64,000 bases of DNA from Candidatus Dormiibacterota bacterium (GTDB lineage Bacteria > Chloroflexota > Dormibacteria > Aeolococcales > Aeolococcaceae): NCBI GenBank assembly GCA_963808125.1, contig CAWEEP010000059.1, positions 39,380-103,379 on the forward strand, written 5' to 3'. How positions within the stretch are numbered: the stretch's first letter is position 1; each line of letters begins with the position of its first letter. Under the pieces are notes generated by a model. That model saw nothing but the letters and a program-made list of their open reading frames with translations. It did no database searches and had not been told where the DNA came from. The translations under genes and the position numbers were made by a program. Of the stretch, positions 12,780 to 45,032 are shown piece by piece.

Positions 12780-14149
12780 TCAGCCGAGAGCGATGGAGGG
12801 GGCCACCCCCGGCTGCTCGATCTCCGGCAGGGCGGAGGGTGCGGCGATGGCCCGGCGGCCCATGCTCAGGTAGACGCCTCCGTGGGCGGCGATCAGCTCG
12901 CCGTCCAGGCAGTTGCGCCCGTCGACGACGAGGCTCCCGCGCATGAGCGAGACCACCCTCGCCCAGTCGAGCTCCAAGTACTCCGGCCACTCGGTGACCA
13001 GACCGACGGCGTCACTGCCGGTGACCGCCTCGTAAGGGTCCTCGACCAGCTCGACGCGGGAAAGGATCGACCGGGCATTGGTGAGCGCCACCGGGTCGGT
13101 GGCGACGATCTGGGCGCCCGACCCCTGGACGTGCCGGATGATGTCGATGGCCGGCGCCTGCCGCAGATCGTCGGTGAAGGGCTTGAAGGCGAGGCCGAGG
13201 ATGGCCACGCGGCGTCCCTGGAGGCTCCCTCCAGGCCTTCGCGCAGCTTCCCAATGAAGCGACGCCGCTGCTGGTTGTTGACCTCGATGGCGGCCTTGAG
13301 AAGCCAGAAGCTCTGACCGTGGTACCCGGCTGACGTCTCCAAGGCGCGGACGTCCTTGGGGAAACAGGAGCCCCCCCAGCCGAGACCGGCACTCAGGAAG
13401 CTGCGCCCGACGCGGGGGTCGAGGCCCATCCCGTCGGCGACGTGGTCGATGTCCGCGCCGGTGAGCTCGCAGAGCTGGGCCATCTCGTTAATGAAGCTGA
13501 TTTTGGTGGCGAGAAAGGCGTTGGAGCCGTACTTGATCAGCTCGGCGCTGGTGCTGTCGCAGAGCAGGCGCACGGAATCCAGGCCGTCGAACAGAGCTGC
13601 CACCCGCTGCCTGGCCGTGGGATCTTCGCCGCCGACCACGATGCGACTGGGGTTCCGGAAGTCGTGCATGGCCGAGCCCTCGCGGAGGAACTCGGGGCAC
13701 ATCACGAACGCCACGTCGCGCCTCTCGGTCCGGGCGGCCAGGGCGCGGGTGCTTCCCGGTGGGATGGTGCTCTTGATGGCAATGACGACGTCGGGACCCA
13801 CGTGGAGGAGCGCCTCGCCCACCGCCTGGTGGACCTGGGAGAGGTCGGCCTCGCCGTCAGGTGTTGGAGGGGTGCCGACCGCGACCATGACGATGCCGGC
13901 ACCCTCGACGCCCTCCTGCATCGTCTCCACCGTTCGCAGGCGGCCGGCGCTCACCACCTCGGCGAGGAGCGTATCGAGCCCAGGCTCGTGGATTGGGCAG
14001 ATTCCCGCCGCGACCGCAGCACGGCGGTCAGGATCGATCTCGACCAGGCGGACCTCGCGGCCCAGGTCGGCCAGGCCCACGGCGGTCACGAGACCGACGT
14101 AACCGGCGCCGACGATGCAGACGACCCGGTCGTCGGGGGTTGGGCCCAT
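12780..14149 (-). CDS. UDP-glucose 6-dehydrogenase; reading frame broken once near nt 13225-13240
   Basis: N-terminal Rossmann VVCIVGAGYVGLVTAVGLADLG, catalytic region GGSCFPKDVRAL, and …NNQQRRRFIGKLREGLEG on one frame (12893-14149). The C-terminal …VAILGLAFKPFTDDLRQAPAIDII… is on the 12780-13208 frame. The junction ggagggagcctccag is consistent with a 1-nt indel. Confidence 0.8.
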
Positions 14150-14224
14150 GGCTGGGACTCTACGGCTTCAGCGCAGGTCCGGCGTGACCGTCGGGGTCCT
14201 GCGTGATGCCGGACGCGCGCCCGG

Positions 14225-14860
14225 TTATCCGGGGAGGCTCCACACCAGGACACCCTGATCGGAGCCCGGCGGGCCGTCCGCGACCTGATCGAGGAAGTTC
14301 TCCACCGGGCGTTGGAGCGCGGGGTCCGTTCCGTACGCCATCGGTCCCATGATGATCACGGTGACGTGCAACGCCTGCAACTCGCCGCGCGAGGCACCGA
14401 CGATATCCGGCCCGCACTGGCCTGTGGGGTACGAGGACTCGAGTGCATCCATGACGCAGGCCAGCGTGGTCCCGACAACTCCAGACGAGGAGGCTGATGC
14501 CGGAAGGCCCCAGGGGTGTTGTTCAAGCTGGATCAGGCTGGGAAGGCCTACGGAGATGCCGTCCGGCCCGGCGCTGACGATGCCACCGGAGACGACGCGC
14601 ACCCGGAACCCTGATTGCGCCTGCCAGAGCAGCGGACCGAGGGTCGCCTCGTTGTATGCGCCGAAGGGCACGAGGAGCGCCAAGGTGCCCCTGGGTAGCT
14701 GCGCGACGTCGCCGCCCGCCAGGAAGTAGGCCGGGGTCGCGGAGTTCCAAGCCGGGAGCGGCATGCTGGGGACCAGGGTGGCGCACACTACGAGAAGTGC
14801 CGTCGCGGCGACCACGCGTGCGCGTCGCGTCCCCTGGAGAACCGTCCGATCGGTGAGCAC
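14225..14860 (-). CDS. Hypothetical exported protein
   Basis: Possible signal anchor …ARVVAATALLVVCATLVPSMPLPAW. No recognised domain. Located upstream of ugd on the same strand. Could be spurious in this GC-rich DNA. Confidence 0.3.
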   Translation of the reverse strand: MLTDRTVLQGTRRARVVAATALLVVCATLVPSMPLPAWNSATPAYFLAGGDVAQLPRGTLALLVPFGAYNEATLGPLLWQAQSGFRVRVVSGGIVSAGPDGISVGLPSLIQLEQHPWGLPASASSSGVVGTTLACVMDALESSYPTGQCGPDIVGASRGELQALHVTVIIMGPMAYGTDPALQRPVENFLDQVADGPPGSDQGVLVWSLPG

Positions 14861-14984
14861 GGCGATGACCGCGGCGAGGCCGAGGTCGATGAACAGCGCG
14901 AACCGTGAGCCGCGGGATCCCCCCGCGCCCGAGCCACGCCGCCACGCCCCTCCGACAGGTCAGGAACACTAGTATTCGCCCACC

Positions 14985-16655
14985 ATGGCAGCGCCAAATC
15001 TTGCCACGCGGAGCGCGCCTCTAAGTATCCCAGCGCGGACAGGGATCGGCCGTCTGGCGCTGGGTCTGCGAGCTCCGGCGCTGTTCCTGGCGCTCGCGCT
15101 GGTGGTGCTGCGGCCCGGGCTGTTCACTGGCCACGACACGATCGTGGGTAACGCCGGGGATCCCTCGCTGTCCATCTGGGCGTTGCAGTGGCTGCCATTC
15201 GCCCTGGGCCACCACCTGAATCCGCTGATGACCGACTACCTCCACTACCCGACTGGCGCCAACCTGATGTGGAACGGTTCCATCCTCTTCCCCGCCCTGG
15301 TGCTGGCGCCAGTCACCCTCATCTTCGGCCCCATCGTCTCCTACAACGTCTTGGCCCTCCTCAGCGTATGGCTCTCCGGCTGGTGCGCCTACCTCGGAGT
15401 GCGCCGCTTCTCACGCCGCTGGGTCTCCGCGCTGATCGGAGGTCTCCTCTACGAGCTGAGCCCCTTCATGGCCAGCCAGATCACCGGCCACGCCCAGATG
15501 TTCGTGGCCATCTTTCCCCCACTGCTGCTGCTCTTCGCCAACGAGATCCTGGTGCGCCAGCGGCGACGGCCGGCGCTCATGGGGGCGCTGCTGGGCTTCG
15601 CCGCCGCCGCCCAGCTCCTCACCGGTACGGAGATGCTGGCCATCTGCGCTGTCATGGCCATCCCGCCCCTGGTCACGCTCGCCGTCCTCCGCCGCGACCA
15701 GGTGCGGGAGAAGCTCCCCTACGCGCTCCGGGCGGCCGGTTTCGCCGCCCTCACCTTCGCCGTGCTGGCGGCGTATCCGCTGTACCTGGTGCTCCTCGGA
15801 CCGCAGCACGTTTCCGGAGCTCTCCAGGGTTTCGTCTACATGGCGCGGCCGACCTCCTTCCTGATCCCGTCGAACGTCCAGCTGATCAGCGGGCCCACCA
15901 CCGTCCTCGACTCCAGCGTGTATATCGGCATCCCAATGGCGATCCTGGCCGTGGCCGTCGGCGTCCGGCTGCGACACAGCCTCGTGGTGGCGGTGGCGTC
16001 GGTGACGCTGGCCTGTGCCGTGGTGCTGTCTCTAGGCGGCCATCTGACCATCCACGGCGGCCCCACGCCGATACCGCTCCCGTGGGACATCGCCCAGCAC
16101 CTGCCCGTGCTCGACAACGTGCTGCCGGTCCGCCTCATGGTGGCGGGCTACCTGGCCTTGTCGGTGATCGTCGCCGTCTTCATCGACGCCGTGCTCGAGG
16201 CTGTGCCGCGGCGGCAGCTCGCCGGGCTGGCGGCGGTCGCCGTGGCGCTGGTGTTCCTCGCCCCCCCGCTGCCGTTCTTCGCCGGACAGCTCATGGTCCC
16301 CGCCTTCTTCACGGACGGCTCGTCCCAGCGGCTCCCGCAGACAGGCTCAGTGCTGATCACCCCATACGGAGTCGCCTATGGGGACTACCCCCCGGAGCTC
16401 TGGCAGGCGGTGTCGAACATGGCCTTCAAGACCCAGCTGGGGATCGTCTACACCCCAGGGCCGGGCGGCCATGAGGTCGGCCCCGAGCTGGATCCGCTCG
16501 GCCGGGAACTGAGCGCCGTGGGAGACGCCGGCAGGCCCGTGCCGGCCACCCTTGCTGTCTCGGTCCGCCAGACGTACCTCGGCGACCTGCGGGCCCACGA
16601 CGTGACCACGGTGATCGTCGGCCCCTCGCCGGGGAGGCTCAGGTCGTGCAGCTGA
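14985..16655 (+). CDS. Polytopic integral membrane protein, GT-C-like topology (putative lipid-linked-sugar glycosyltransferase)
   Basis: 556 aa with at least 11 hydrophobic segments. The first extracytoplasmic loop after TM1 is rich in conserved small, acidic and aromatic residues (…GHDTIVGNAGDPSLSIWALQWLPF…), as in GT-C enzymes. Function inferred from topology and genomic context only. Confidence 0.6.
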   Translation: MAAPNLATRSAPLSIPARTGIGRLALGLRAPALFLALALVVLRPGLFTGHDTIVGNAGDPSLSIWALQWLPFALGHHLNPLMTDYLHYPTGANLMWNGSILFPALVLAPVTLIFGPIVSYNVLALLSVWLSGWCAYLGVRRFSRRWVSALIGGLLYELSPFMASQITGHAQMFVAIFPPLLLLFANEILVRQRRRPALMGALLGFAAAAQLLTGTEMLAICAVMAIPPLVTLAVLRRDQVREKLPYALRAAGFAALTFAVLAAYPLYLVLLGPQHVSGALQGFVYMARPTSFLIPSNVQLISGPTTVLDSSVYIGIPMAILAVAVGVRLRHSLVVAVASVTLACAVVLSLGGHLTIHGGPTPIPLPWDIAQHLPVLDNVLPVRLMVAGYLALSVIVAVFIDAVLEAVPRRQLAGLAAVAVALVFLAPPLPFFAGQLMVPAFFTDGSSQRLPQTGSVLITPYGVAYGDYPPELWQAVSNMAFKTQLGIVYTPGPGGHEVGPELDPLGRELSAVGDAGRPVPATLAVSVRQTYLGDLRAHDVTTVIVGPSPGRLRSCS

Positions 16656-16814
16656 TGACCGAGTTGCTCGGAACGCCCGGCACGGCAACGGGCGGGGTCG
16701 TCGTCTGGTACGGGGTGGGCGCCGAGACGTCGCCATGACCGCACCGCCGGGGCTGAATGCCCCCGGGCCACGGCGCCGCGCATCCCGCCACCTTTCGTGC
16801 GAGCATCTCGCTCC

Positions 16815-17441
16815 ATGAGCAGCTTCAGCCAGACGTACCTCGAGGAGGTCGGGCGCATCGCCGCCGCCATCGACAGCGACCAGGTGGAGCGACTGGCCGC
16901 CGGCCTGGCCCAGGTCAGAGAGCGGTCTGGCCGGCTCTTCGTCCTCGGCGTCGGCGGCTCGGCGGGCCACGCCGGCCACGCCGTCAACGATTTCCGGAAG
17001 CTGTGCGGTATCGAGGCGTACGCTCCCACCGACAACGTGTCCGAACTGACCGCACGCATCAATGACGACGGCTGGGACACCTCCTATAGTGCGTGGCTCG
17101 CCGGTTCCCATCTCCGGGCCCATGACGCGATCCTGGTCTTCTCGGTGGGGGGCGGCGACCGTGAGCGGGGCATCTCCGCCAACATCGTCAAAGCGCTGGA
17201 GGCAGCCCGGGCGGCGGGCTGCTTCATCGGCGGCATCGTGGGCAGGGACGGGGGGTACACCGCCCGCGTCGGCGACGCCGTCGTCATCATCCCGCCCCTC
17301 GTGGGTGAGCGGGTCACCGCCCACACCGAGGGTCTCTGCGCCGTCATCTGGCACCTCCTGGTCTCCCACCCCCTGCTGCAGCGGAACCCGACCAAGTGGG
17401 AATCGGCGGTGGGAGGCCCATCGTGGCCAGCCGTTTCCTGA
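16815..17441 (+). CDS. gmhA: SIS-domain D-sedoheptulose 7-phosphate isomerase
   Basis: ATG at 16815 (MSSFSQTYLEEV…). …GRLFVLGVGGSAGHAGHAVNDFRKL… and …DAILVFSVGGG… are GmhA-type SIS motifs. Confidence 0.8.
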   Translation: MSSFSQTYLEEVGRIAAAIDSDQVERLAAGLAQVRERSGRLFVLGVGGSAGHAGHAVNDFRKLCGIEAYAPTDNVSELTARINDDGWDTSYSAWLAGSHLRAHDAILVFSVGGGDRERGISANIVKALEAARAAGCFIGGIVGRDGGYTARVGDAVVIIPPLVGERVTAHTEGLCAVIWHLLVSHPLLQRNPTKWESAVGGPSWPAVS

Positions 17442-18411
17442 TCGTCGGAGGCGCCGGCTTCATCGGCAGTCATCTGACCGATCGCCTCCTCGGTGAGCCG
17501 GGCACCGAGCGCGTCACCCTGTACGACAACTTCTCCTCCGGCCGCGAGTGGCACTACGCGGCTTGGCGCGACGATCCGCGGCTGGACGTCATACGCGCCG
17601 ATGTCCACGAGCAGGAGCGTCTGAACGCCACCGCGGCGGGGCACGAGGTGGTGATTCACCTGGCGTCGAACCCCGACATCGCCCGGGCCGTGCGCGAGCC
17701 GTCGATCGACTTCCACGAGGGCACCGAGCTGACGCACGCCGTGGTCGAGGCGGCGCGGATCTCGGGTGCAACCACCCTCCTCTATCCCTCGGGAAGCGGG
17801 GTGTACGGAGATCTGGGAGAACTGGAGGTCGAGGAGGATCACGGTCCCCTGGTCCCGGTCTCCACGTATGGGGCGTCCAAGATGGCCGGAGAGGCCCTGA
17901 TCGCCGCCTACTGCCACATGTTCGGGCTGGTCGGACGGGCCTTCCGCTTCGGCAACGTCGTCGGAGCCAGGCAGACGCACGGCGTCGGTCTCGACTTCCT
18001 CCGCCGCCTGATCGAGGATCCGACGCGGCTGCGGATCCTCGGTGACGGCAAGCAGAGCAAGTCGTACATCCACGTGAGCGACGTGGTGGAGGCGGTCATG
18101 ACCGCCCTTGCGCGCGAGACACGGCCATTCCAGGTCTACAACGTCGCCACCGGCGACTACACGACGGTCCGCGAGATCGCCGACATGGCCGTCGAGGTTC
18201 TCGGCCTGCGGCCGGGATCTGTGACCTACGAATTCACCGGTGGGGATCGGGGCTGGAAGGGGGACGTGCCGGTCGTGCCGAACTCCGGACGGACCGCATC
18301 CGAGCGCTGGGGTGGAGCAACCGGCTGCGATCCTCCGAAGCCCTGCGGGCGTCCCTCGAGGAGATGCGCGCCACGCTTCCGGGGGGGGCGCCCGAAGGCA
18401 CCGGGGCGTGA
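17423..18411 (+). CDS. NAD-dependent epimerase/dehydratase (extended SDR); frame broken once near nt 18276-18284
   Basis: GTG at 17423. LIVGGAGFIGSHL (Rossmann), the YGASK catalytic motif, …HVSDVVEA…. The true C-terminus …ELRTDRIRALGWSNRLRSSEALRASLEEMRATLPGGAPEGTGA* lies in the +1 frame and ends at the TGA at 18409-18411, so a single missing G in ccgg is inferred. Paralogue of the 30439-31455 gene (…GDSPLIDLDTTKIRSLGWEPTLTIREAI…). Confidence 0.8.
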
Positions 18412-18968
18412 ACTCGGTTCCCGCCGTCTTCCTCGACCGCGACGGCGTGCTGAACGCGGCCGTCGTCGTCGACGGTCGCCCGCACCCCCCCCGAAGCGCC
18501 GCCGAGATGATGCTTCTGCCGGGCGTCGAGGACGCTTGCGCCCGGCTGCATGGTGCCGGTTTCGTGCTGGTCTGTGTGACCAACCAGCCCGATATCGCCC
18601 GGGGCGTGACCACCGCCGCCAGGGTGGCGGAGATCAACGACGACATCCAGCGCCGCCTCGGCCTCGATGCCGTCGCGGTCTGCCCCCATGACGACGCCGA
18701 CGGCTGTGCCTGCCGCAAACCCAAGCCGGGGCTGATCAGGGAAGCCGCCGCACGCCTCGGCCTGGATCTCACCCGAAGCGTGGTGGTCGGCGACCGCTGG
18801 CGCGACGTCGAGGCGGGTAGACAGGCGGGCTGCCGGACCGTCCTCATCGACCGCGCGTACGATGAGCCGGCGGCGATCGCCGACGCCGTTGCCGCCTCTC
18901 TGGCCGAGGCGGTCCCGTGGATCATCAGCCTCTCCCGCAGGGGGACCTCCCCGAGAGCGGAGGCATGA
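18408..18968 (+). CDS. gmhB: D-glycero-D-manno-heptose 1,7-bisphosphate phosphatase (HAD family)
   Basis: GTG at 18408 overlapping the epimerase stop (GTGA). AVFLDRDGVLN… (DxDx motif), …VCVTNQPDIARG…, …CPHDDADGCACRKPKPGL… (the Zn-binding Cx..C of GmhB), …VVGDRWRDVEAG…. Confidence 0.8.
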   Translation: MNSVPAVFLDRDGVLNAAVVVDGRPHPPRSAAEMMLLPGVEDACARLHGAGFVLVCVTNQPDIARGVTTAARVAEINDDIQRRLGLDAVAVCPHDDADGCACRKPKPGLIREAAARLGLDLTRSVVVGDRWRDVEAGRQAGCRTVLIDRAYDEPAAIADAVAASLAEAVPWIISLSRRGTSPRAEA

Positions 18969-18969: not shown

Positions 18970-19696
18970 ATGGTGGACAGGGTGGATCTGAGCACATTGC
19001 GCGTCGAGGTGTTCGCCGACGGGGCGGATCGCGCCGGGATCGAGGGTCTGGCACGGAATCCCTGGATCAAGGGGTTCACCACCAACCCGACGCTGATGCG
19101 CGCTTCCGGCGTCGCCGACTACGAGGCGTTCGCACGGGACGTCCTCACCGTGGTCGGTGGCCGCCCAATCTCGTTCGAGGTCTTCGCCGACGATTTCGAC
19201 GAGATGATCCGCCAGGGGCGGCGGATCGCCGGCTGGGGTGAGGCGGTGTTCGTGAAGATTCCCGTCACCGACACCCAGGGCCGCCCCACCTCCGCCGTGC
19301 TCAGATCCCTGAGCTCGGAGGGTATCCAGCTCAACGTCACGGCGATGACCACCCCGGCACAGGTCCGCCGCGTCGTCGATTGCCTGGCGCCGGGAAGCCG
19401 TCACTTCGTGTCCCTCTTCGCCGGCAGGGTCGCGGACACGGGAAGGGACCCGCTGCCGCTGGTGCGGGAGTGCCTGGAGATCCTCGGTCCGCGTCCCGAG
19501 ATCAGGTTGATCTGGGCCAGTCCCCGAGAGATCCTCAACGTGATCCAGGCCCACGAGGTGGGCTGCCACGTCATCACGGTGACTTCACGACCTCCTCGCG
19601 AAGCTGCCGCTCCTGGGCAAGGATCTCGACGAGTACTCCCTGGAGACGGTGCGCATGTTCCATCGCGACGCGGTCACCGCCGGCTTCCACCTGTGA
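18970..19696 (+). CDS. tal: Transaldolase, short TalC/fructose-6-phosphate-aldolase-type; frame broken once near nt 19585-19590
   Basis: ATG at 18970 (MVDRVDLSTLRVEVFADGADRAGIEGLARNPWIKGFTTNPTLM…). Schiff-base Lys region …AVFVKIPVT…. The true C-terminus DLLAKLPLLGKDLDEYSLETVRMFHRDAVTAGFHL* lies in another frame ending at 19694-19696, so a 1-nt insertion in acttcacga is inferred. Confidence 0.8.
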
Positions 19697-19738
19697 GACC
19701 CGGGCGGCGCGACGCTCGACGCTGATGGCGACGGACTG

Positions 19739-20460
19739 ATGCCGCTGCCCGTGGTCATCCTCGCCGGCGGCCTCGCGACGCGGATGTACCCGCTCACTGA
19801 GACCGTACCCAAGGCGTTGCTACCGGTGAACGGGCGCCCCTTCGCGGACATCCAGCTGCGCTGGCTCAGTTTCTCGGGGTGCGCGACGTCGTGTACAGCA
19901 TCGCCTACTTGGGTGAGGCGATCCAAGAGCATGTCGGAGACGGTCGGCAATTCGGCCTTCGGGTCCGCTATGTGGCGGACGGCGAGCGGTACCTCGGTAC
20001 CGCCGGCGCGCTGCGCGCCGTCATCGACGCGCAGGCGGTGCCCAAAGACTTCGGGGTCGTCAACGGCGACTCCTTTCTCACCCTCGATCTCGCCGCGGTC
20101 GAACGTGCCTTCAGGGCGAGCGGCTCGCCGGCGCTGATGACAGTGATGCGCAACCGCGACCGCTGGGACAGCAGCAACGTGGTCTTCGACAAGGGGCGCG
20201 TCGTCGTCTACGACAAAAGCCGGCCCGGTGCGTCGCGGGACCGGATGGAGTGGATCGACTACGGTTTCTCGGTCCTGGCCCGCCACGCCATCACCGACCG
20301 CGTCGCGGCGGGCCAGGTCGCCGACCTCTCCGATGTGATGCGCGAACTGAGCCTCGCCGGACAGCTGGCTGGCTTCGAGGTTGCCGACCGCTTCTACGAG
20401 ATCGGCTCACCACAAGGATTAGCTGACCTCGAGCGCCACCTGGGACCGCTTGCCCCATAG
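19739..20460 (+). CDS. hddC: Sugar-1-phosphate nucleotidyltransferase, D-glycero-alpha-D-manno-heptose-1-phosphate guanylyltransferase-like; frame broken near nt 19866-19876
   Basis: MPLPVVILAGGLATRMYPLTETVPKALLPVNGRPFADIQLRWL on one frame, then …VRDVVYSIAYLGEAIQEHVGDG…YLGTAGAL…VVNGDSF… on the next. A single-base loss in agtttctc is inferred. Context is gmhA/gmhB/hddA. Confidence 0.75.
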
Positions 20461-20476
20461 TGCCGCCGGAGGCGGC

Positions 20477-22152: not shown

Positions 22153-22276
22153 AGGTTCAGGCTCTCCGGGCAGCGGTCGCCGGGCGCACGGGGAATGCCA
22201 CACTCGTCCCGGCGCTCCGGATCGGGCGCGAGTTCTACGCGATCGGACCGGATTTCGGGGCCGGGCGCGGTCCGTC

Positions 22277-23383: not shown

Positions 23384-23527
23384 CGCATCTCATCGTGAAC
23401 GCCGGACGCCGGGTCATCCCTGACCTTGCGGCAGTAGTCTCATCTCGCCATGAAGCCTACCAGCACGGCAGCGGACCCGGTGATCGAGACCCCATCCCAG
23501 GATGGGCCTCCCGGGAAGCAGAAAAGG

Positions 23528-23902: not shown

Positions 23903-23971
23903 GCCGGGATCGTAGCGGCCTCGCGGCGGCACCTGCCCGGCGACGGCGGAGGTCGGCTATCCTGACCCTGG

Positions 23972-24604: not shown

Positions 24605-24653
24605 TCGTCACCAGCTCAGAACCTCCCGGACGGGCCGCGATATCTAGAATGCG

Positions 24654-25046: not shown

Positions 25047-25076
25047 CCCGGGTCACTCCCACAGCACCTCCGCGCC

Positions 25077-25955: not shown

Positions 25956-26010
25956 GCGGCACGACCGCCTCAGATCACGATGTCGAAAGGCAGGCGGGTA
26001 AAGTGGGGAC

Positions 26011-26349: not shown

Positions 26350-26403
26350 CGAAGGGCGGCGCCGCTTCCAGGCGGCTCTGACGCGTCGTCGCGATCCCGT
26401 CGC

Positions 26404-37084: not shown

Positions 37085-37099
37085 GCGCAGGCAGACCGT

Positions 37100-38078
37100 C
37101 ACAGCGGCGGGAGCCTGCGGACCTGTCCTCTGTGCGGCGAGCCACCGCGGCTCAATTCGCGAATCCGCTCGCCCTTCTCGTCGATGACCTTTCAGCTGGG
37201 TCGGTGCGACACCTGCGGTATCGGCCTCGTCCTCGATCCGCGAACCGACTTCGCGAACCTCGACGGGCCCGAGTACTAGGCGGGGAAGGGGGCCGACCCC
37301 TGGATCGACTACGTGGCGGACGAGGCGCCCGGATCCATCCGCGAGATCGAGTGGCGGGGCATCGTGCGGACGGTGGCTGACGTCGTGAGGCGCCGGCGGC
37401 CGGATTCCAGGGCGTGGAACCTCCTGGACTGGGGAGCCGGCCTGGGCGGACTGGTGCGGACGGCTCGACAGCTGGGCATTGAGGCCGACGGTCTGGACGA
37501 GGGTTACGCGGCGACCGTACTGGCCGCCAAGGGCCTTCTGGCTCGACCGATTCCGGAATTGCGTGAGCGCTATGACGTCGTCACGGCGATCGAGGTCGTC
37601 GAGCACCTGACCGACCCCCTGCCGGTGCTGCGCGCCATGGCGAGCTGCCTCAAGCCGGGGGGTTTCCTCTTCATCACCACGGGCAACCTGGCGAAGGCCC
37701 CGACCTCGTTGGACCGCTGGCAATACGCCCGCATCCCCGACGTCCACGTGACCTTCTGGTCGCCTCGAGCTTGGGCGGGGGCACTCGGCCGGATCGGGCT
37801 GGAACTCGGTCCCTCTCCCGATTGCCCGGGTCGACTCGCGCATCGTGCAATACAAGGTCATGAAGGCCCTACCGAGGTACCGCCGTCGGCTGGCCGCGAC
37901 GCTCCCGATGTGGAGGCCCGCGGCGCGGTTCGTCGATTTCAGTCATGGGGTGTCGGGATTCCCCATCGGCGTCAGACCGATGGCGATGCAGGCCAAACCC
38001 ATGGATGCGGCGGCCGAGGTCGAGTTGGTGGGGAGCCCGTCGATCTCGCTCCGCGAAACCCGGGAGGCCGACGTTTGA
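37100..38078 (+). pseudogene. Zinc-ribbon class I SAM methyltransferase (paralogue of 26404-27264) interrupted by an in-frame TAG (37277-37279) and a frameshift near 37825-37840
   Basis: …LRTCPLCGEPPRL…CDTCGIGLVLDPRTDFANLDGPEY*AGKGADPW…LLDWGAGLGGL (motif I)…DVVTAIEVVEHL…LKPGGFLFITT…, then the C-terminus …IVQYKVMKALPRYRRRLAATLPMWRPAARFVDF… in the 37845 frame. This parallels the paralogue domain by domain. The start codon is not identifiable. Whether this is true gene decay or sequence error is open. Confidence 0.45.
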
Positions 38079-38140: not shown

Positions 38141-40489
38141 ATGCTCTCCTCCCCCAAACTCCACCGCTGGCTCGCGCTTGGATGCGCCGGGGTCCTCCTC
38201 GGAAGCAGCCTGGTTCTCGCGGCCAGCCGCGTGGAGGCCTCGGCGGCGGGCGGTTCTGTCTTCTCAACGGCGCAGTCCGTGTTCCCGTCGATCAGTTCCC
38301 TGCCAAGCAAGGTGTCTGGGGTCGGCGCGCCGACGTCGTCGAGCCCGAGGCCGGGTGGATCTCAGAAGGAAGTGACCAACACCGCCGACCAGGCGAACGG
38401 CGCCTACACCCCGCTGACCCCCTATCGCATCTGTGACACGCGGACCGGCCATGGCACTTCCTGCCAAGGCAATACACTCGGCCCCCTGGGCACCCTGAGC
38501 CTCACCGTCACCGGTGTCGACGGGGTGCCCGACACGGCGACGGCGGTGGCCCTCAACGTCACCGTCACCGACACCGACGCCAACAGTTTCCTCACCGTCT
38601 ATCCCGCCGGAGAGGCGACTCCCACCGTCTCCAACCTCAACTGGTTTCCCGGGATGACCATCCCCAACCTCGTCATCGTCCCCCTCGGCACCGCCGGGCA
38701 GGTGACCTTCTTCAACGGATTCGGCACCGTCGACGTCATCGCCGACCTGGAGGGGTACTTCTCCCCTGAGGGCACCGGCCAGACCGCCGGCAGCTACGTC
38801 CCCCTGACCCCGGCCAGGATCGCCGACACCCGCCCCGGCAGCGGCGAGCCCTATGCCGGCGACACCCTTCAGGCGGGCAGCACGCTGAACATCCAGGTCA
38901 CCGGGGAGGGTGGGGTGCCCGCCACCGGCGTCGCCGGCGCGCTCCTCAACGTCACCGTCACCGGCACCAGCGCGCAGAGCTTCCTCACCGTCTACCCGCA
39001 GGGGGTGAGTATGCCGCTGGCCTCCAACCTGAACTGGATGGCCGGAGACACGATCCCCAACCGGGTGGTGGTGCCGGTCAGCCCCACCACCGGCCAGATC
39101 ACCGTCTACAACCCTTTCGGCACGGTGGACGTGATCGTCGACGTCGACGGCTACTTCACCACCGGCACCACGACGCCGGCGGGAGCCAGCCTGTTCGGCA
39201 CGGTCAGCCCCGTCCGGGTGCTGGACAGCCGGCTGAGCAGCCAGACCCTCAGTTCCAGCGGCGTCGTCACCCAGCAGATCGCCGGAGTGGACGGCATCGC
39301 CTCCAACGCCACCGCGGTGGTCTCCAACATGACCGCCACCGACACCTCCTGGGAGAGCTTCTTCACGGTCTATCCGGGAGGGTCCCGGCCCAACGCGTCG
39401 GACCTGAACTGGTTCGCGGGCAACACCATCCCCAACCTCACCGTGGCCACCCTGAGCAGCACCGGCAGCGTCTCGGTCTTCAACGCCTTCGGCTACGCGG
39501 ACCTCATCATCGACGCCTCCGGCTACTTCGCCCCGGAGACGCCGGCCCCGGTGACGATCCTCACGACCTCGCTTCCCTCGGCGACGGTCGGTGACATCGG
39601 CTACTCGGCGACGCTGAGCGGCTACGGGGGCACCCCGGCGTACACCTGGACAATGGACGGCGGGTCGCTTCCCCCGGGCCTCAGCCTCTCCACCGCCGGG
39701 GTGATCTCCGGCCAGCCCACGGCGTCGTCCGGCTCACCGTATCACTTCACGGTCGAGCTGACCGACTCCACCACCATCGTCAAGACGGCGACGCAGGCAC
39801 TGTCGATCACCGTCGCGTCGACCATGACGGAAAGCCTCGGGTACAGCTATAACTGGTCCGGCTACGCGGTGACCGGAGGCCCGTTCACTTCGGTCACGGG
39901 GACCTTCGTCATGCCCAATCTCTATTCCTCTGACCCAGACAACACGGCGATGTCGGAGTGGGTCGGCATCGACGGTTTGGACAACGATAATCTGATCCAG
40001 GCGGGCATCATCGAGTACCCGAACGGATCAGGGGGTTACAACTACTTTCCGTGGTGGGAGATCCTTCCGAACGATGCGGTGGACATCTTCCCGGGAGCGC
40101 TGACTGATCTAGCGGCCGGGGACAGTGTCACCATCACGATCAGCCAGATCGACGGCACCGATTGGGCGATCAACTTTGTCGACACCACGCAGTCGGAGAC
40201 GTTCACGACCGACCAGAAGTACACCGGAGCAGCGACGTCGGCGGAGTGGATTGTGGAAACCCCCAATTACGACGTTCTCGATCCGGCCGCAGGGGACTTT
40301 ATGGCGAACTACACCGCCACGGGGTTCCGTGACCTCGGTGCGGTCGGACCCGTGTATGGCGTGTCGGGCGGGACTGGCCTGACCGAGATCCTGATGGTTC
40401 AGACTCCTCCGGGGGGGCCTGAAGCGCAGGTTTCCACACCGTCCTCCCTCGACTTCTCGTGGGCTTTAACATGGCATACGGGAACCTAG
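38141..40489 (+). CDS. Secreted multidomain protein: signal peptide, 3 copies of an unassigned roughly 120-aa repeat, He_PIG (putative Ig) domain, then a C-terminal eqolisin/G1 glutamic peptidase-like domain
   Basis: The signal peptide is MLSSPKLHRWLALGCAGVLLGSSLVLAASRVEA. Repeat pattern: Y.PLTP.RI.DTR-[Cys pair]-…LNVTVT.T…SFLTVYP.G…P..SNLNW..G.TIPN.V.VP…GQ.T..N.FG.VD.I.D..GYF. He_PIG region …SLPPGLSLSTAGVISGQPTASSGSPYHFTVELTD…. C-terminal domain …YSYNWSGYAV…SEWVGIDG…NLIQAGII…AEWIVETP… matches my memory of the scytalidoglutamic-peptidase fold with catalytic Gln and Glu contexts. Confidence 0.85.
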   Translation: MLSSPKLHRWLALGCAGVLLGSSLVLAASRVEASAAGGSVFSTAQSVFPSISSLPSKVSGVGAPTSSSPRPGGSQKEVTNTADQANGAYTPLTPYRICDTRTGHGTSCQGNTLGPLGTLSLTVTGVDGVPDTATAVALNVTVTDTDANSFLTVYPAGEATPTVSNLNWFPGMTIPNLVIVPLGTAGQVTFFNGFGTVDVIADLEGYFSPEGTGQTAGSYVPLTPARIADTRPGSGEPYAGDTLQAGSTLNIQVTGEGGVPATGVAGALLNVTVTGTSAQSFLTVYPQGVSMPLASNLNWMAGDTIPNRVVVPVSPTTGQITVYNPFGTVDVIVDVDGYFTTGTTTPAGASLFGTVSPVRVLDSRLSSQTLSSSGVVTQQIAGVDGIASNATAVVSNMTATDTSWESFFTVYPGGSRPNASDLNWFAGNTIPNLTVATLSSTGSVSVFNAFGYADLIIDASGYFAPETPAPVTILTTSLPSATVGDIGYSATLSGYGGTPAYTWTMDGGSLPPGLSLSTAGVISGQPTASSGSPYHFTVELTDSTTIVKTATQALSITVASTMTESLGYSYNWSGYAVTGGPFTSVTGTFVMPNLYSSDPDNTAMSEWVGIDGLDNDNLIQAGIIEYPNGSGGYNYFPWWEILPNDAVDIFPGALTDLAAGDSVTITISQIDGTDWAINFVDTTQSETFTTDQKYTGAATSAEWIVETPNYDVLDPAAGDFMANYTATGFRDLGAVGPVYGVSGGTGLTEILMVQTPPGGPEAQVSTPSSLDFSWALTWHTGT
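38396..39539 (+). repeat. Three tandem in-frame protein repeats (about 390 nt each) inside 38141-40489
   Basis: Repeat starts at about nt 38396, 38786 and 39182. Each unit carries a conserved N-x-T site (ALNVTVT, LLNVTVT, VSNMTAT). Units 1 and 2 carry RI[CA]DTR near the start; unit 1 has a Cys pair. Confidence 0.7.
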
Positions 40490-40778: not shown

Positions 40779-40813
40779 TGCTCGCCTTCTGAGTGCGGCT
40801 GTGGCCCGGCCCC

Positions 40814-41692
40814 TCAGCGGTCTGACGGGACCGCGCCCTTCGCCCCGTCGGCACGCAGAGCGGACATGTAGGCGTGGAGGCCCTCCCGCCAGTCGGGGAG
40901 GGGGGGCTCGCCGAGTTCTCTCCAGCGCCGGTTGTCGAGCACGGAGTAGGCGGGGCGGGGCGCCGGCGTCGGGTATTCGGCACTCCCGATCGCCTCGACC
41001 GGGACGTCCAGTCCGGCGTCGGACACGATCGTCTCGGCGAACCCGTGCCAGGTAGACACCCCCGCGTTGGTGAGGTGGAAGGTGCCGAGGTCCCCACGCT
41101 CGAGCAGCCGGACGATCGCCGAAGCGAGATGGCCGGTCCAGGTGGGCGACCCGTACTGGTCCGCAACGACCCGCAGCGGCCTCCCGTCGCGCGCCAGGCG
41201 GAGCATGGTGAGGACGAAGTTGGGCCCCTGCTGGCCGTACAGCCAGGCGGTCCTGACGATCTGGTGGCGGTGCCACGTCTCGCGCACCGCCTCCTCGCCG
41301 GCGAGCTTCGTTCGCCCGTAGGCGCTGCGCGGCGCCGGCGGCGCAGTCTCGTCGATGGGCGAGGTGGCGGTGCCGTCGAAGACGTAGTCGGTGCTCAGGT
41401 GGCAGAGGAGGACATCCCGCTCCCGGCATGCCTTGGCAAGCACACGAGGGCCGTCGGCGTTGACAGTTCGCGCCGCGTGCTCCGCGTCCTCGGCCGCGTC
41501 CACCCGGGTCCAGGCGGCGCAGTTGACGACGGCGTCCGGAACAACATGGTCGAGCAGCGTCGCCACCGACTCGGGGCTGCGGATGTCGACACTGTCGACG
41601 TCGTGCCCGGAGGCTTGGTGGCCGGTGCGAGAGAGGGTGTCCAGGAGTTCGCGACCGAGCTGCCCCCGCGAGCCCACCACCTCGATGCGCAC
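40814..41692 (-). CDS. rmlD: dTDP-4-dehydrorhamnose reductase
   Basis: GTG rc at 41692 (VRIEVVGSRGQLGRELL…). …VVNCAAWTRVDAAE…, …LSTDYVFDG…PIDETAPPAPRSAYGRTKLAGEE… (YxxxK). The upstream 193 codons of the ORF are rejected. Confidence 0.85.
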   Translation of the reverse strand: MRIEVVGSRGQLGRELLDTLSRTGHQASGHDVDSVDIRSPESVATLLDHVVPDAVVNCAAWTRVDAAEDAEHAARTVNADGPRVLAKACRERDVLLCHLSTDYVFDGTATSPIDETAPPAPRSAYGRTKLAGEEAVRETWHRHQIVRTAWLYGQQGPNFVLTMLRLARDGRPLRVVADQYGSPTWTGHLASAIVRLLERGDLGTFHLTNAGVSTWHGFAETIVSDAGLDVPVEAIGSAEYPTPAPRPAYSVLDNRRWRELGEPPLPDWREGLHAYMSALRADGAKGAVPSDR

Positions 41693-41699
41693 GAGCGCC

Positions 41700-42713
41700 T
41701 CAGGCCGCGCCCGGCGGCAGCGGCTTGTAGTTGCGCTGGTAGAACTCCCAGAACTCGCCGCTCTTGAGAGGGCGCCACCACTCCGGGTGCTCGACATACC
41801 AGCGAACGGTGCGCTCCATGCCCGCGGCGAAGGACACCCGAGGCGCCCACCCGAGGCCCTGCAGCTTGCTGCAGTCCAGCGCGTAGCGGCGGTCGTGGCC
41901 AGGGCGGTCGGCGACCAGCTGCTTGAGCGAGTCCGGCTTGCCCAGAAGTCGCAGAACCGTGTCGGCGACGGTGCGCCCATCGATCTCGCCGCCCATCCCG
42001 ACGTTGTAGTCCTCACCGGTGCGCCCGTCGCGCAGCGCCTTGTCGATGCCCCGACAGTGATCCTCGACATGGATGTAGTCGCGCACCGCGGAGCCGTCGC
42101 CGTAGATGGGTAGCGGCCTGTCCTCGATGGCGTTGGTGATGAAGAGGGGAATGATCTTCTCCGGGTACTGATACCAGCCGTACGTGTTGGAGCCGCGCGT
42201 GACGATGGCGGGGAAGCCGAACGATGCGCGGTAGGCCTTGACGAGCATCTCCCCGCCGGCCTTGCTGGCACTGTACGGGCTCCTCGGATCGAGGCAGTCG
42301 CCCTCGCGGCTCCGCCCTTCGTTCACCTCGCCGTAGACCTCGTCGGTGCTCACGTGCAGGAAGCGCTGGTGGCCGCTCGCCCGTGCCGCCTCCATGAGCA
42401 CGTAGACCCCGTGGACATCGGTCTGGATGAACTGCCCCGCTGCCTCGAGGGAGCGGTCCACGTGCGATTCCGCCGCGAAGTTGACGATGACGTCCGTTTC
42501 CCTCGCCAGCGTCGCGACGGTAGCCGAGTTGCAGATGTCGCCGTGGACGAAGCGCATTCGGGGATCGTCCGCCACCGGGTCCAGGTTGCGAAGATTGCCA
42601 GCGTAGGTCAGCTTATCGAGGACGATCACGGAGTCCCCGGCATGCTCGCGAAGAGTCATCCGCACGAACTCGCTGCCGATGAAGCCGGCTCCGCCCGTGA
42701 CCAGGAGCCTCAT
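41700..42713 (-). CDS. rmlB: dTDP-glucose 4,6-dehydratase
   Basis: MRLLVTGGAGFIGSEFVR…, …HVSTDEVYG…, …YSASKAGGEMLVKAY…, …YIHVEDHCRGI…. Textbook RmlB. Confidence 0.92.
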   Translation of the reverse strand: MRLLVTGGAGFIGSEFVRMTLREHAGDSVIVLDKLTYAGNLRNLDPVADDPRMRFVHGDICNSATVATLARETDVIVNFAAESHVDRSLEAAGQFIQTDVHGVYVLMEAARASGHQRFLHVSTDEVYGEVNEGRSREGDCLDPRSPYSASKAGGEMLVKAYRASFGFPAIVTRGSNTYGWYQYPEKIIPLFITNAIEDRPLPIYGDGSAVRDYIHVEDHCRGIDKALRDGRTGEDYNVGMGGEIDGRTVADTVLRLLGKPDSLKQLVADRPGHDRRYALDCSKLQGLGWAPRVSFAAGMERTVRWYVEHPEWWRPLKSGEFWEFYQRNYKPLPPGAA

Positions 42714-42723
42714 TCCAGCACCC

Positions 42724-44937
42724 CTATTCGAACCAGCCCTGAACGTCGACCACGGCGTTGATCGTACCGTACAGGTTGTACAGGTCGAACGCCCCGGGAT
42801 GGCTGCCTGAGGTGGCCAGCTGGACGATGGTCAGGTTGGGGATGACCTGGCCCGTCCAGGCATTGACGTCACTGGCGAGGGGCAGGGCGTCACCGTCTGG
42901 GTAGGCGGTGAGGAAGGTGGGGGACGTCCCGCTCACCGCCGTGAGGTTGGCCAGGACGGCAACGGGCGGGGAGCTGCCGCCCGAGGCGGGAAGGCCGTCG
43001 ACGCCGGACACCTGGACCGTCATGCTCTGTCCGGGGCCCAGGGGATTCCCCGAGCACTCCGTCGCAAAGCCCAGGCTGGCGATTCGCGTGTCGCAGATCC
43101 GGGTCGGCGCGATGGCGTAGAAATGGGCTCCCGCCAACGTCTCGGCACCGGTGCCGAACCAGCCGTTGACGTCGAGGATCGCATTGATGCTGCCCTGCAT
43201 GTTGTAGACGCAGACGTCGGCGTTCGGACCGAGACGGGTGATCACCCGGTTGGGTCGGGTCTCGAAGGGCCAGACGTTGACGTTGGAGTAGGCAGGTGGA
43301 CTGGTGGGGCAGGCGTCGGCGCTGTTGGGAGAGGTGACACTCAGGAAGGATTGCTGGGTTCCGGAGACTGCGGTGAGGTTGAGGGCAACGGCCTCCGCCG
43401 TGCCGTTGGTCGGCACCGATGCTGTCCCCGCCGCCGCACCTGCGGGCAGCCCGCCAACGGTGATCTTCGTCCAGGAGTTGACCCCAAGCGGAGTGCTCGC
43501 GCAGCCCGTGCCGCTCGACGGACGGGTGTCACAGATGCGCAAGGGGGCGATGGCGTGGAAGAGGCCTGGAGCCGAGGTCCCCGACGCTGCGGCGAAGTAG
43601 CCGACGACGTCGACGGCGACGTCGACGCGCCCATACGGGCTGTAGATGCTGACCTGGCCGGCGTCGCCGAGGGGTACCACCGCGAGGTTGGCGACGATGT
43701 CCCCGGCGAGGACGTTGATGTTGGAGGTGCCGGGCAAGGCGGCGCCGGTGGGATAGACCGTCAAGAAGGTGGCCTGGGTCGGCCCAATGGCCGTGACGTT
43801 GAGCACCACCTCCTGGGCGTCGGCGGGCACCAGCTGACCCTGAGGGCCGGTGACCCCGGCGATAAACATGCTCACCGTCCCCCCTGGCCCGATGGGATGC
43901 CCGGAGCACCCGGTGCCCGTGCCGACCCGCGTGTCACAGATGCGATAGGGGGTGAGCGGCGTGTAGGCACCGGCGCTTCCGAGCGGTGCGTACGCCCCGC
44001 CGCCCCACAGCAGGGATGAGTAAGCGCTCAGGAACTCGTCGACATCGACGTTCGGGTCGTTGTTGGGGACGGGAAAACCGCTGTTGATCTCGTACTGCCA
44101 TGCGACGGTGGTGTTGGCGCAGGGCAGCGGGTACGGGGTCTCGTCGGCCGGGTCCCAGGGCGGGGCATTCCCTGCGATGGGGAAGTACGGTGGCTGTTGG
44201 CCCGGATACCAGTAATACGGCTCGAATTCGTTCGTCCAGAGAGCGACGCCGTTGGCGAGCGCGGGCTCCGCTGCCACCGCCGAGCACCACGCCCCCGAGG
44301 TGCCGGCAAACGGGCCCGCGGTGTTGTAACTGTTTTCGTAGAAGCCGGGGACGTAGCCGCTGCCCGAGTCGGCGAAGGCCTGGTACCAGCTCTCGATGTA
44401 CGGGGTGGAGATGCCGTCATAGATTTCGACGTCGCGGAAGATCGCCGTTCCCGGTGGGGCGCCCAGCGTGTGGGCCTGCTGAATGGCCGTCTGGGCCTCG
44501 CTGGTGCCCTGGGCCGTCTCCGCCTGGACGCTCGAGGTGTTGAATCCGTCGGCGTCGGCGATGAGCAGGATGCTCACACCGTTCGAGGCGAGGAAGCTGA
44601 CCTCCGCAGCGCTGAGGCCGTTCGTCCCGCAGCGGTTGGACCCCAGATACCGACCGATGAAGGCGGGCGTGCCCATGCCGACCGTCTCTGCGATCGGGAC
44701 GACGCTCGTGGCCGAGTCGCAGCTGTCGATGCCCCAGAGGGTCGCGGGATAGGAGGCGGCCGCAACGGCGACCGGCTGGAACTGGAATGCCAGAGCGCAC
44801 ACCGCCACCGCCACCGCGGCACCGATCAGGCTGCGCCACCGTCGAGATCGGCTGGCCAAGGATCCTCCGCCCGTGTGTTCGTCCTGTCGCCGGCCACCCC
44901 TGCCGCGCGGGCGCCGACCGCCCGGGGATTCTCGCAC
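42724..44937 (-). CDS. Secreted protein: N-terminal DUF1906/Rv2525c-like glycoside-hydrolase-like domain plus 3 copies of the same roughly 120-aa repeat family as 38141-40489
   Basis: Hydrophobic leader …SLIGAAVAVAVCALAFQ…. …LWGIDSCDSATSVVPIAETVGMGTPAFIGRYLGSN…ILLIADADGF… resembles the DUF1906 TIM-barrel hydrolase-like family (family call from memory). C-terminal repeats …YTPLTPYRICDTRVGTGTGCSGHP…VLNVTAIGPT…FLTVYPTG…VPLGDAGQVSIYSPYGRVDVAVDVVGYF…, each with a Cys pair and an N-x-T. Confidence 0.8.
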   Translation of the reverse strand: MRESPGGRRPRGRGGRRQDEHTGGGSLASRSRRWRSLIGAAVAVAVCALAFQFQPVAVAAASYPATLWGIDSCDSATSVVPIAETVGMGTPAFIGRYLGSNRCGTNGLSAAEVSFLASNGVSILLIADADGFNTSSVQAETAQGTSEAQTAIQQAHTLGAPPGTAIFRDVEIYDGISTPYIESWYQAFADSGSGYVPGFYENSYNTAGPFAGTSGAWCSAVAAEPALANGVALWTNEFEPYYWYPGQQPPYFPIAGNAPPWDPADETPYPLPCANTTVAWQYEINSGFPVPNNDPNVDVDEFLSAYSSLLWGGGAYAPLGSAGAYTPLTPYRICDTRVGTGTGCSGHPIGPGGTVSMFIAGVTGPQGQLVPADAQEVVLNVTAIGPTQATFLTVYPTGAALPGTSNINVLAGDIVANLAVVPLGDAGQVSIYSPYGRVDVAVDVVGYFAAASGTSAPGLFHAIAPLRICDTRPSSGTGCASTPLGVNSWTKITVGGLPAGAAAGTASVPTNGTAEAVALNLTAVSGTQQSFLSVTSPNSADACPTSPPAYSNVNVWPFETRPNRVITRLGPNADVCVYNMQGSINAILDVNGWFGTGAETLAGAHFYAIAPTRICDTRIASLGFATECSGNPLGPGQSMTVQVSGVDGLPASGGSSPPVAVLANLTAVSGTSPTFLTAYPDGDALPLASDVNAWTGQVIPNLTIVQLATSGSHPGAFDLYNLYGTINAVVDVQGWFE
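42727..43974 (-). repeat. Three tandem in-frame protein repeats inside 42724-44937
   Basis: Units begin at …AYTPLTPYRICDTR, …AIAPLRICDTR and …AIAPTRICDTR. Same family as the 38396-39539 repeats, with 30-45% identity by eye. Confidence 0.7.
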
Positions 44938-45032
44938 GAGATCGCCGCGAGCGCGCCTGTCGATGCCAAATCGAAGCCACCCCCGGGGCTCACCGCGACA
45001 CGCCCCCGGCTCCCGGGGCGGCGCGACGCCAG

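Follow-up and report, generated by a model that had tools for sequence, protein, structure and literature searches.

A variable, probably envelope-glycan locus of uncultured Candidatus Dormibacteria with heptose-type genes and GT-C-type membrane proteins

Gene content, site and intactness of the block

We examined a block of genes at 12.8-44.9 kb of a 64-kb stretch of contig CAWEEP010000059.1 (in the following the window; G+C about 70%), which extends from the UDP-glucose 6-dehydrogenase gene ugd to the gene of the secreted repeat protein B (Table 1). Genes were picked by third-position GC and then scanned against Pfam and NCBIfam, and functions were assigned from sequence and predicted structure. 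An earlier note on this DNA had described an island of sugar-nucleotide and glycosyltransferase genes, and the gene content found with both databases supports this description. It had overlooked the transaldolase, the response regulator, an insertion sequence (IS), a truncated paralogue of a glycosyltransferase C (GT-C)-like protein, and at least 11 apparent frameshifts. In our view, the block is rather probably a strain-variable cell-envelope glycan locus of an uncultured soil bacterium of the Candidatus Dormibacteria that would employ lipid-linked, probably heptose-type, donors. The most interesting result is the module of heptose genes, a family 2 glycosyltransferase (GT2), and a large GT-C protein, and the second is a very large jelly-roll domain family that lacks a model.

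The block encodes the synthesis of UDP-glucuronate and dTDP-L-rhamnose. An intact homologue of ugd matches the NCBIfam model NDP-sugDHase with 411 bits, and the dTDP-L-rhamnose set of RmlA, RmlB, RmlC, and RmlD is complete, as had been stated before. The genes rmlA, rmlB, and rmlD exceed their NCBIfam equivalog cut-offs, and rmlC exceeds only its Pfam cut-off (80 bits, cut-off 27), with 63 bits against the cut-off of 156 for TIGR01221. The block also encodes a nucleoside diphosphate (NDP)-heptose-type pathway, consisting of an isomerase, a GHMP kinase, a HAD phosphatase, a nucleotidyltransferase, and a dedicated transaldolase, together with extra short-chain dehydrogenase/reductase (SDR) and Gfo oxidoreductases and methyltransferases. 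The GmhA-like gene is 83% identical to its counterpart in the cassette of contig L001, and cluster members of the HddA-like kinase carry the JGI name heptose-7-P kinase. The transaldolase, whose intact homologue in contig L008 reaches 319 bits with TIGR02134 (cut-off 282), likely supplies sedoheptulose-7-P. The Gfo/Idh/MocA oxidoreductase, the SDR oxidoreductase, and the PfkB kinase of the earlier note were all found by Pfam. PfkB was considered as heptose kinase but rejected, as it sits in a five-gene core that is kept in loci without the cassette.

The methyltransferases were confirmed in part. Two zinc-ribbon enzymes are demonstrable, one of them disrupted, but the FkbM-type protein scores below the cut-offs, and the third zinc-ribbon homologue, assumed to be fused to a GT2, could not be upheld: comparison of the N-terminal domain of the GT2 with both zinc-ribbon methyltransferases gave BLASTP E values of at least 1.2. 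Instead of several GT2s, there is a single GT2 gene.

The site is fixed in the chromosome and has housekeeping genes on both sides, with cell-wall and cofD/yvcK genes on the left (Mur ligase, folD, PBP5, two FemAB genes, cofD/yvcK) and the suf operon on the right (cysteine desulfurase, Rrf2, sufCBDS, NifU, ParB, signal peptidase). The left flank is syntenic with the contigs L001-L006, which carry homologues of the 556-aa GT-C-like protein (60-91% amino acid identity), although the genes downstream of ugd differ. In other Dormibacteria, the genes that follow the cofD-ugd flank vary: there are small GT2s, an amine oxidase, other GT2s, and between one and three paralogues of the 556-aa protein, and sometimes the heptose cassette. 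At the right boundary, the succession of protein B, a 145-aa gene, and cysteine desulfurase is kept in L081-L084 whatever the upstream content, and the five-gene core with PfkB and the receiver is present in Dormibacteria loci whatever glycan genes surround it. The site is a variable region between fixed flanks and not a single 32-kb unit. The statement that almost all genes are sugar-related is largely right, except for the non-glycan conserved core inside the block (23.5-26.4 kb), whereas the island does not end with two repeat proteins, as protein B belongs to the conserved right flank. The five-gene core is inverted in L004, and its 112-aa protein has a weak SHOCT match.

The organism had been taken for an actinobacterium, which is wrong. 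SufC falls into a 90%-identity cluster with a Candidatus Dormibacteria protein, those closest homologues of the 556-aa protein that have a name (59-73% identity) are from Candidatus Dormibacteria, and the flank synteny likewise assigns the window to the phylum Candidatus Dormiibacterota.

As many reading frames appear interrupted, the block could in principle be a decaying, non-functional remnant in which the frameshifts, a stop codon, the truncated paralogue, and the IS reflect real pseudogenisation. Comparison with intact homologues revealed at least 11 apparent frameshifts at 13-38 kb, and the flank genes that were checked are uninterrupted. One frame change each was found in ugd (near 13229, where the tblastn match of the intact homologue from L002 breaks at aa 307/308), the first SDR (near 18300, tblastn frame change at aa 287-291), the transaldolase (19585), hddC (19871), and the second methyltransferase (near 37.8 kb), and two each in the large membrane protein (29500 and 30225), the Gfo oxidoreductase, and the classical SDR. 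The Gfo oxidoreductase likely has two compensating frameshifts, with 60% identity in one tblastn frame versus 76-97% for the neighbouring genes, and the classical SDR yields three tblastn segments in three frames. Relative to the intact 367-aa gene of L009, the second methyltransferase also carries an in-frame stop (Tyr to stop). The truncated GT-C paralogue at 14225-14902 corresponds to aa 399-632 of a 635-aa paralogue in L001 (63% identity), and tblastn found no match to the first 400 aa.

This picture changes in comparison with L007, an independent assembly that is 99% identical over 19331-30852 and differs there by 66 indel bases. L007 has one extra C exactly at 19871, 29500, and 30225, and conversely carries many frameshifts, with dozens of other indels, where the window is intact. 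As three of the four checkable frameshifts are thus single-C differences, most disruptions are probably long-read consensus errors, and the locus is therefore probably functional. In agreement with this, third-position GC is 0.77-0.94 in the affected genes, and in L008-L010, which are colinear with the window at 17.6-41.9 kb (83-88% nucleotide identity), every gene is whole and the IS is lacking. The IS, whose limits were set by comparison with L008, is a 1,252-bp insertion in a 39-bp intergenic gap between convergent genes; terminal inverted repeats were searched for and not found. The fourth checkable frameshift, in the transaldolase, is a +1 change common to both assemblies, with a site sequence that differs between them, and the stop codon of the methyltransferase is a true one. 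After the L007 comparison we mostly rejected pseudogenisation of the island, which we regard as unlikely. The apparent gene decay, most of it probably a sequencing artefact, could mislead automated annotation of this metagenome-assembled genome (MAG). Positions 1-716 of L007, which encode YidC fragments, do not align to the window, which points to a rearrangement or to a chimeric join in one of the assemblies.

The heptose genes, the GT2 and the GT-C-type proteins

Two GT-C-like membrane proteins had been called in the earlier note, and both calls held up, for the protein of about 1023 aa by its fold and for the 556-aa protein by weak clan matches of its family members. By sequence, neither protein is a member of a curated GT-C family (Pfam clan CL0111 or CAZy), and profile searches of the PDB with both families returned only noise (TRPV4, a mucin-like protein). 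The 556-aa protein has about 10-11 hydrophobic segments and no Pfam or NCBIfam match of its own, and looking up its exact sequence, like that of P0121, yielded no contig that encodes it. Its homologues carry PF19830 or PF09594 (precomputed matches), and family members weakly match GT87, DUF2079, PTPS_related, YfhO, and PMT_2 of the Pfam GT-C clan.

For the large protein, sequence searches of Pfam, NCBIfam, and the PDB gave no match. The AlphaFold2 model of P0244, a 70%-identical homologue, was of good quality by its scores (pLDDT 85.4, pTM 0.86) and shows the conserved helix arrangement of GT-C enzymes in its polytopic N-terminal membrane module. The structural neighbours of this model are ArnT (score 11.2), Pmt4 and Pmt2 (11.1), ALG12 (10.2), PglB (10.0), STT3B (9.8), ALG9 and GPI mannosyltransferase I (both 9.6), AftA (9.2), AglB (8.8), and GAB1 and ALG3 (both 8.6). 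The C-terminal third is beta-rich, contains two invariant cysteines, and weakly resembles carbohydrate-binding modules (CBMs). We considered whether the large protein is an STT3-type oligosaccharyltransferase and rejected this, as Pfam gives no STT3 match and the scores of ArnT and PMT are not below that of PglB.

Both families have an acidic residue after the first transmembrane helix, namely the invariant Asp59 (GDP) in the alignment of the 556-aa family (A2) and the near-invariant Asp32 (TDIVG) in that of the large protein (A3), and this residue of the first extracytoplasmic loop would be catalytic in both. Sequence homology of the two families is not claimed, as the hhalign probability was only 24%. 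Their fold and the co-occurrence with a DPMS-like GT2 suggest that the GT-C proteins use polyprenyl-phosphate-linked donors.

For the GT2, the nearest solved chains are 6yv7, DPMS (5mlz), ArnC, and GtrB (E = 1e-12 to 1e-5), and the best NCBIfam match is AglJ (80 bits, cut-off 325). From these sequence relationships, the GT2, which has an extra N-terminal domain of about 190 aa, is predicted to be a polyprenyl-phosphate sugar synthase.

The conservation of these genes was analysed in species-representative genomes. A contig scan with protein A alone found nothing; a later scan with the alignment of the large protein yielded 70 loci, of which the +/-10-kb neighbourhoods were compared. They come from Acidimicrobiales, Micromonosporaceae (Dactylosporangium roseum NRRL B-16295, L029, and Rugosimonospora africana NBRC 104875, L025, both cultured), the likewise cultured Mycobacterium sp. 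4858 (L032), Nocardioides, Solirubrobacterales, Gaiellales, and Dormibacterota. All five heptose genes were found in 37 of the 70 neighbourhoods and at least four in 46; for the 49 loci with a length of 20 kb or more, the figure is 37. Unsupervised clustering of the 1,189 genes called in these loci gave the large GT-C protein in 69 loci, a GT2 of about 418 aa that includes the GT2 of the window in 51, an SDR in 50, hddC in 42, hddA in 41, the transaldolase in 38, gmhA in 33, and a methyltransferase in 25, whereas rml genes were rare. The heptose cassette, the GT2, and the GT-C protein of about 1000 aa thus constitute a conserved module of Actinomycetota and Dormibacterota. Two or three paralogues of the large GT-C protein occur in some genomes (L025; L027, L028, and L070 on contig CAVUNP010000031), and no heptose cassette lies within 10 kb of the three on this contig. 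The large GT-C family may not be restricted to heptose.

Cassettes for nucleotide-activated heptoses derived from sedoheptulose-7-P occur in actinomycete antibiotic clusters, and the locus is rich in tailoring enzymes, so that one could think of a soluble secondary metabolite that contains heptose, similar to septacidin or hygromycin. However, Pfam scans of the block found no genes for polyketide synthases, nonribosomal peptide synthetases, aminotransferases, cyclitols, or nucleoside cores, the cassette is constantly accompanied in the 70 loci by a GT-C membrane transferase and a DPMS-like GT2, peptidoglycan genes surround the locus, and PfkB is part of a conserved core whose presence does not depend on the sugar genes. 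We consider such a metabolite very unlikely, and the envelope-glycan locus remains our preferred explanation.

Table 1. Features of the block at 12.8-44.9 kb of the window
Feature	Position	Strand	Basis or remarks
ugd (UDP-glucose 6-dehydrogenase)	12780-14149	-	Pfam; N-terminal and central domains in 12893-14149, C-terminal domain in 12780-13208
C-terminal remnant of second DUF6311/GT-C-like paralogue, 211-aa open reading frame (ORF)	14225-14902	-	tblastn
556-aa polytopic GT-C-like protein, Dormibacteria-expanded family	14985-16655	+	
SIS-domain GmhA-like sedoheptulose-7-P isomerase	16797-17441	+	Pfam SIS_2, E = 2.5e-7
Extended SDR, epimerase/dehydratase type, heptose cassette	17396-18402	+	Pfam Epimerase, E = 2e-41
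GmhB-like HAD-IIIA phosphatase	18408-18968	+	TIGR01656, 134 bits (cut-off 84)
Transaldolase, staphylococcal type	18982-19693	+	Pfam TAL_FSA
HddC-like sugar-1-P nucleotidyltransferase	19739-20460	+	Pfam NTP_transferase, two ORFs
rmlC	20477-21055	-	Pfam dTDP_sugar_isom, 80 bits
rmlA, long form	21055-22131	-	TIGR01208, 434 bits (cut-off 320)
FkbM-like protein, weak	22277-23383	-	PF05050, 20.1 bits (cut-off 22.7); TIGR01444, 28.5 bits (cut-off 37.7)
Conserved non-variable core, five genes	23528-26349	mixed	Pfam; same five in loci with other glycan genes
Receiver-only response regulator	23528-23932	-	First of the five core genes
PfkB kinase	25077-25955	+	Core gene; other core members are 210-aa, 130-aa, and 112-aa unknowns
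Zinc-ribbon class I methyltransferase	26404-27264	-	Methyltransf_23, E = 9e-24; N-terminal CPAC...CMDC motif
GT-C-fold membrane glycosyltransferase (predicted), about 1023 aa, unclassified family	27370-30440	+	
Second extended SDR	30439-31455	+	Pfam Epimerase, E = 1e-47; 97% identical to L008
HddA-like GHMP kinase	31480-32466	+	Best match NF049969 (HddA), 139 bits (cut-off 600)
Gfo/Idh/MocA oxidoreductase	32500-33445	+	Pfam, domains in two frames
Classical SDR (adh_short)	33452-34290	+	Pfam
IS with transposase DDE_Tnp_1 + DUF772 (403 aa, 34262-35473)	34281-35532	-	Pfam
433-aa GT2, DPMS/ArnC/GtrB/AglJ-like	35570-36871	-	Pfam Glycos_transf_2
Zinc-ribbon class I methyltransferase, disrupted	36974-38075	+	Methyltransf_23, E = 4e-22
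Protein A: signal peptide, three jelly-roll repeats, He_PIG, Peptidase_A4	38141-40489	+	Pfam
rmlD	40814-41692	-	TIGR01214, 323 bits (cut-off 224)
rmlB	41700-42713	-	TIGR01181, 424 bits (cut-off 365)
Protein B: RR-containing signal, three repeats, Rv2525c-like domain	42724-44937	-	Pfam

Secreted repeat proteins and the flanks of the block

Proteins A (782 aa) and B (737 aa) are indeed secreted proteins with three repeats each, as the earlier note had said, but they are not giants and have recognised catalytic domains. The repeat of 118-141 aa has no matching Pfam model, and its N-x-T is invariant in all six copies, which bears out the description as an otherwise unrecognised repeat of about 120 aa. 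Protein A matches Peptidase_A4 (PF01828, E = 6e-26) with the motifs WVGIDG..LIQAG and AEWIVE, of which LIQAG and AEWIVE presumably provide the catalytic Gln and Glu of these eqolisins. Protein B has a domain of the Rv2525c-like family, which includes Tat-exported putative peptidoglycan hydrolases (bioRxiv 10.1101/2025.07.02.662783). By their sequences, A is a predicted glutamic peptidase and B an Rv2525c-like putative wall hydrolase, and neither appears to be a dedicated glycan acceptor.

The repeat belongs to a family with 35,633 cluster representatives, 26,054 of them at E <= 1e-10, mostly with three stretches per protein. Usually it occurs as a triplet joined to wall-active or other secreted enzymes, and its fusion partners include TIG, fn3, Peptidase_A4, CHAP, Peptidase_C39_2, GH25, GH5, PL14, YkuD, and Big_1. 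The AlphaFold2 model of repeats 1-2 (pLDDT 94.5) is an all-beta jelly-roll with the N-x-T in the middle of a strand, and it matches the fold of the Bd2133 fibre tip and of CBM35, CBM6, and CBM22 modules; the similarity to these CBMs is one of fold, without sequence match to any Pfam family. Most likely, the predicted triple CBM35-like module targets A and B to wall glycan. A likeness to the triple S-layer homology (SLH) modules that anchor proteins to the wall is a functional analogy only.

The earlier note had proposed a self-contained system that builds a methylated heptose/rhamnose/uronic-acid glycan and, by means of the GT-C enzymes, installs it on the N-x-T of the two repeat proteins. Protein A lies inside the island and has a homologue at the same position in L008-L010, another repeat protein adjoins GT2 and methyltransferase-GT2 (MT-GT2) genes in L082, enzymes that glycosylate proteins (PMT, PglB, STT3, and AglB) are among the structural neighbours of the large GT-C protein, and the N-x-T is found in every repeat, all of which could be taken in favour of such a system. 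However, across 73-75 diverse members of the family of about 35,600 clusters, all three repeats have the N-x-T with no or hardly any exceptions, so that it is not peculiar to this locus, its Asn sits mid-strand in a confidently predicted jelly-roll, and the -2 residue is A, L, or S in all six repeats and not the D/E of the bacterial sequon D/E-x-N-x-S/T recognised by PglB. Pfam gave no match to an STT3 oligosaccharyltransferase in the locus, and PglB, STT3B, and AglB appear as general GT-C fold neighbours, with scores no better than those of ArnT or PMT. The repeat proteins and the island, which the earlier note expected to occur together, are found apart in local context: neither the repeat nor Peptidase_A4 was detected in any of the 70 GT-C/heptose loci (+/-10 kb), and family members of Kitasatospora and two other MAGs lie in unrelated genomic contexts. 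Furthermore, protein B keeps its place beside the housekeeping genes where the upstream content is different, and both proteins appear to be enzymes with a CBM-like targeting module. We therefore regard glycosylation of A and B as dedicated acceptors as very unlikely, and the N-x-T looks like a structural or ligand-site signature rather than a dedicated sequon. As a speculation, the occurrence of repeat proteins near Dormibacteria glycan genes (A in L008-L010, another in L082) is compatible with wall-glycan binding.

Upstream of the protein B homologue in L082 (795-2351 and 3817-6540) are a phage-type integrase and a 907-aa protein in which the repeat of proteins A and B occurs together with Big_1 Ig domains and which adjoins a true MT-GT2 fusion. 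Downstream of protein B, a gene at 45033-45470 (-) encodes a 145-aa acidic protein without Pfam match, which always adjoins the protein B homologues in L081-L084 (74-84% identity). Two class-V aminotransferase (cysteine desulfurase) genes at 45424-46770 and 51317-52414 bracket the Rrf2 regulator and sufCBD, and NifU-like and FeS_assembly_P genes follow. The ORFs at 52691-53704 (-) and 56483-57406 (-), of 337 and 307 aa, have a coding-like third-position GC and no Pfam match. On the other side, a tandem FemAB-family pair, a PBP5-type carboxypeptidase, and a Mur ligase flank the island at 7363-11212, which suggests a peptidoglycan with an interpeptide bridge in the Dormibacteria phylum.

Proposed function and relation to known systems

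The envelope-glycan locus that we favour could work as follows. On the cytoplasmic side of the membrane, the GT2 would attach a sugar, most probably the heptose or a modified form of it, to polyprenyl phosphate. The lipid-linked sugar would then be flipped by a factor not seen in the window, and on the outer side the GT-C enzymes would pass it to an acceptor in the envelope, for which a wall polysaccharide, possibly one containing rhamnose, is more likely than a protein. This would be the two-step logic of ArnC/ArnT, GtrB/GtrV, CsbB/YfhO, and DPM1/PMT.

Several points weigh against this view. The identity of the sugar and its nucleotide is deduced from the gene set and its conservation, and the use of heptose by the GT2 from co-occurrence. 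The profile search of the ORFs upheld the rml calls but left the large GT-C protein unmatched, and the heptose enzymes all score below the NCBIfam equivalog cut-offs (bits/cut-off: gmhA with TIGR00441 38/209, HddA 139/600, GmhB with PRK08942 121/178, HddC 60/300). For the nucleotidyltransferase, the MurU, ManB-type, and HddC models match about equally weakly, and the intact HddC-like homologue of L008 even scores higher with MurU (100 bits) than with HddC (60 bits), both below the cut-off. The heptose assignment is made because the enzyme set is complete, tightly clustered, and widely conserved. Of the complete GDP-heptose route with two SDRs that had been proposed, the four enzyme classes and both SDRs are thus present, but the scores leave the GDP part unproven. 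The assignment of the 556-aa protein depends on weak clan-level matches, and the fold evidence for the large protein comes from a 70%-identical homologue and not from the window protein itself. No rhamnosyltransferase is evident, so that the fate of dTDP-rhamnose is unexplained. Scanning of the ORFs of the 64-kb window revealed no GtrA/GtcA flippase, initiating phosphoglycosyltransferase, Wzy or other polymerase, ABC exporter, or LCP ligase; the pathway is therefore incomplete as seen, and the notion of a self-contained system is unsupported. The shared transaldolase frameshift and the true stop codon described above leave room for some decay. Finally, neither a lipid-linked heptose donor nor a GT-C heptosyltransferase turned up in our searches of the literature, and we know of no described precedent for a lipid-phosphate-heptose donor.

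Extracytoplasmic glycosylation by three components, i.e., a GT2 of the GtrB/CsbB/ArnC/DPM1 type, a small flippase, and a GT-C protein, is known (PMC7389260, PMC12041528), with GtrV, YfhO, GacL, ArnT, and PMT as GT-C partners and streptococcal PgfS with its own GT-C partners. The block is similar to these systems in that a GT2 near DPMS, ArnC, and GtrB is encoded together with GT-C-fold proteins near ArnT and PMT, and, as in the arn operon, genes of sugar-nucleotide supply are adjacent. In contrast to these systems, the window has no GtrA- or GtcA-type flippase, its GT-C protein of about 1000 aa carries CBM-like domains at its C-terminus and falls into no Pfam family, the GT2 has its additional N-terminal domain, and the linked pathway is that of heptose, for which no lipid-phosphate donor has been described. 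There is also no sequence-level relation to the mycobacterial and corynebacterial GT-C proteins that use decaprenyl-phosphate sugars (EmbA/B/C, AftA-D, MptA-D, PimE), and the donor pathway differs.

The heptose locus of Mycobacterium tuberculosis is likewise an island of unknown product (PMC10906988; PMC7705670). It shares with the block the enzyme classes and their clustering with an SDR, whereas in the block four enzymes fall below the equivalog cut-offs and a dedicated transaldolase is part of the cassette. To our knowledge, the M. tuberculosis locus has not been described with a large GT-C protein.

A more far-reaching possibility, which we put forward tentatively and consider less probable than the locus assignment itself, is that the large protein founds a new GT-C family and, together with the heptose cassette and the DPMS-like GT2, constitutes the first extracytoplasmic heptosyltransferase or polymerase system that depends on lipid-phosphate-heptose, building or decorating a heptose-containing envelope glycan in many Actinomycetota and Dormibacterota. 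In a still bolder extension, the triple jelly-roll would attach secreted enzymes to these wall glycans in the manner of an SLH anchor.

We know of no experimental work on the envelope of Candidatus Dormibacteria, and a variable locus between fixed flanks is likely to determine how diverse the surfaces are and how the cells interact with phages or their environment. The repeat of proteins A and B constitutes a very large family without Pfam model that looks like a wall- or glycan-targeting module. The heptose cassette, the GT2, and the unclassified GT-C protein occur in about 50 species-level genomes, some of them from cultured actinomycetes. This module offers a hypothesis for an undescribed lipid-linked sugar donor and may explain the purpose of actinobacterial heptose loci; if a lipid-phosphate-heptose system exists, it might also bear on the unexplained rv0112-0115 locus of M. 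tuberculosis.

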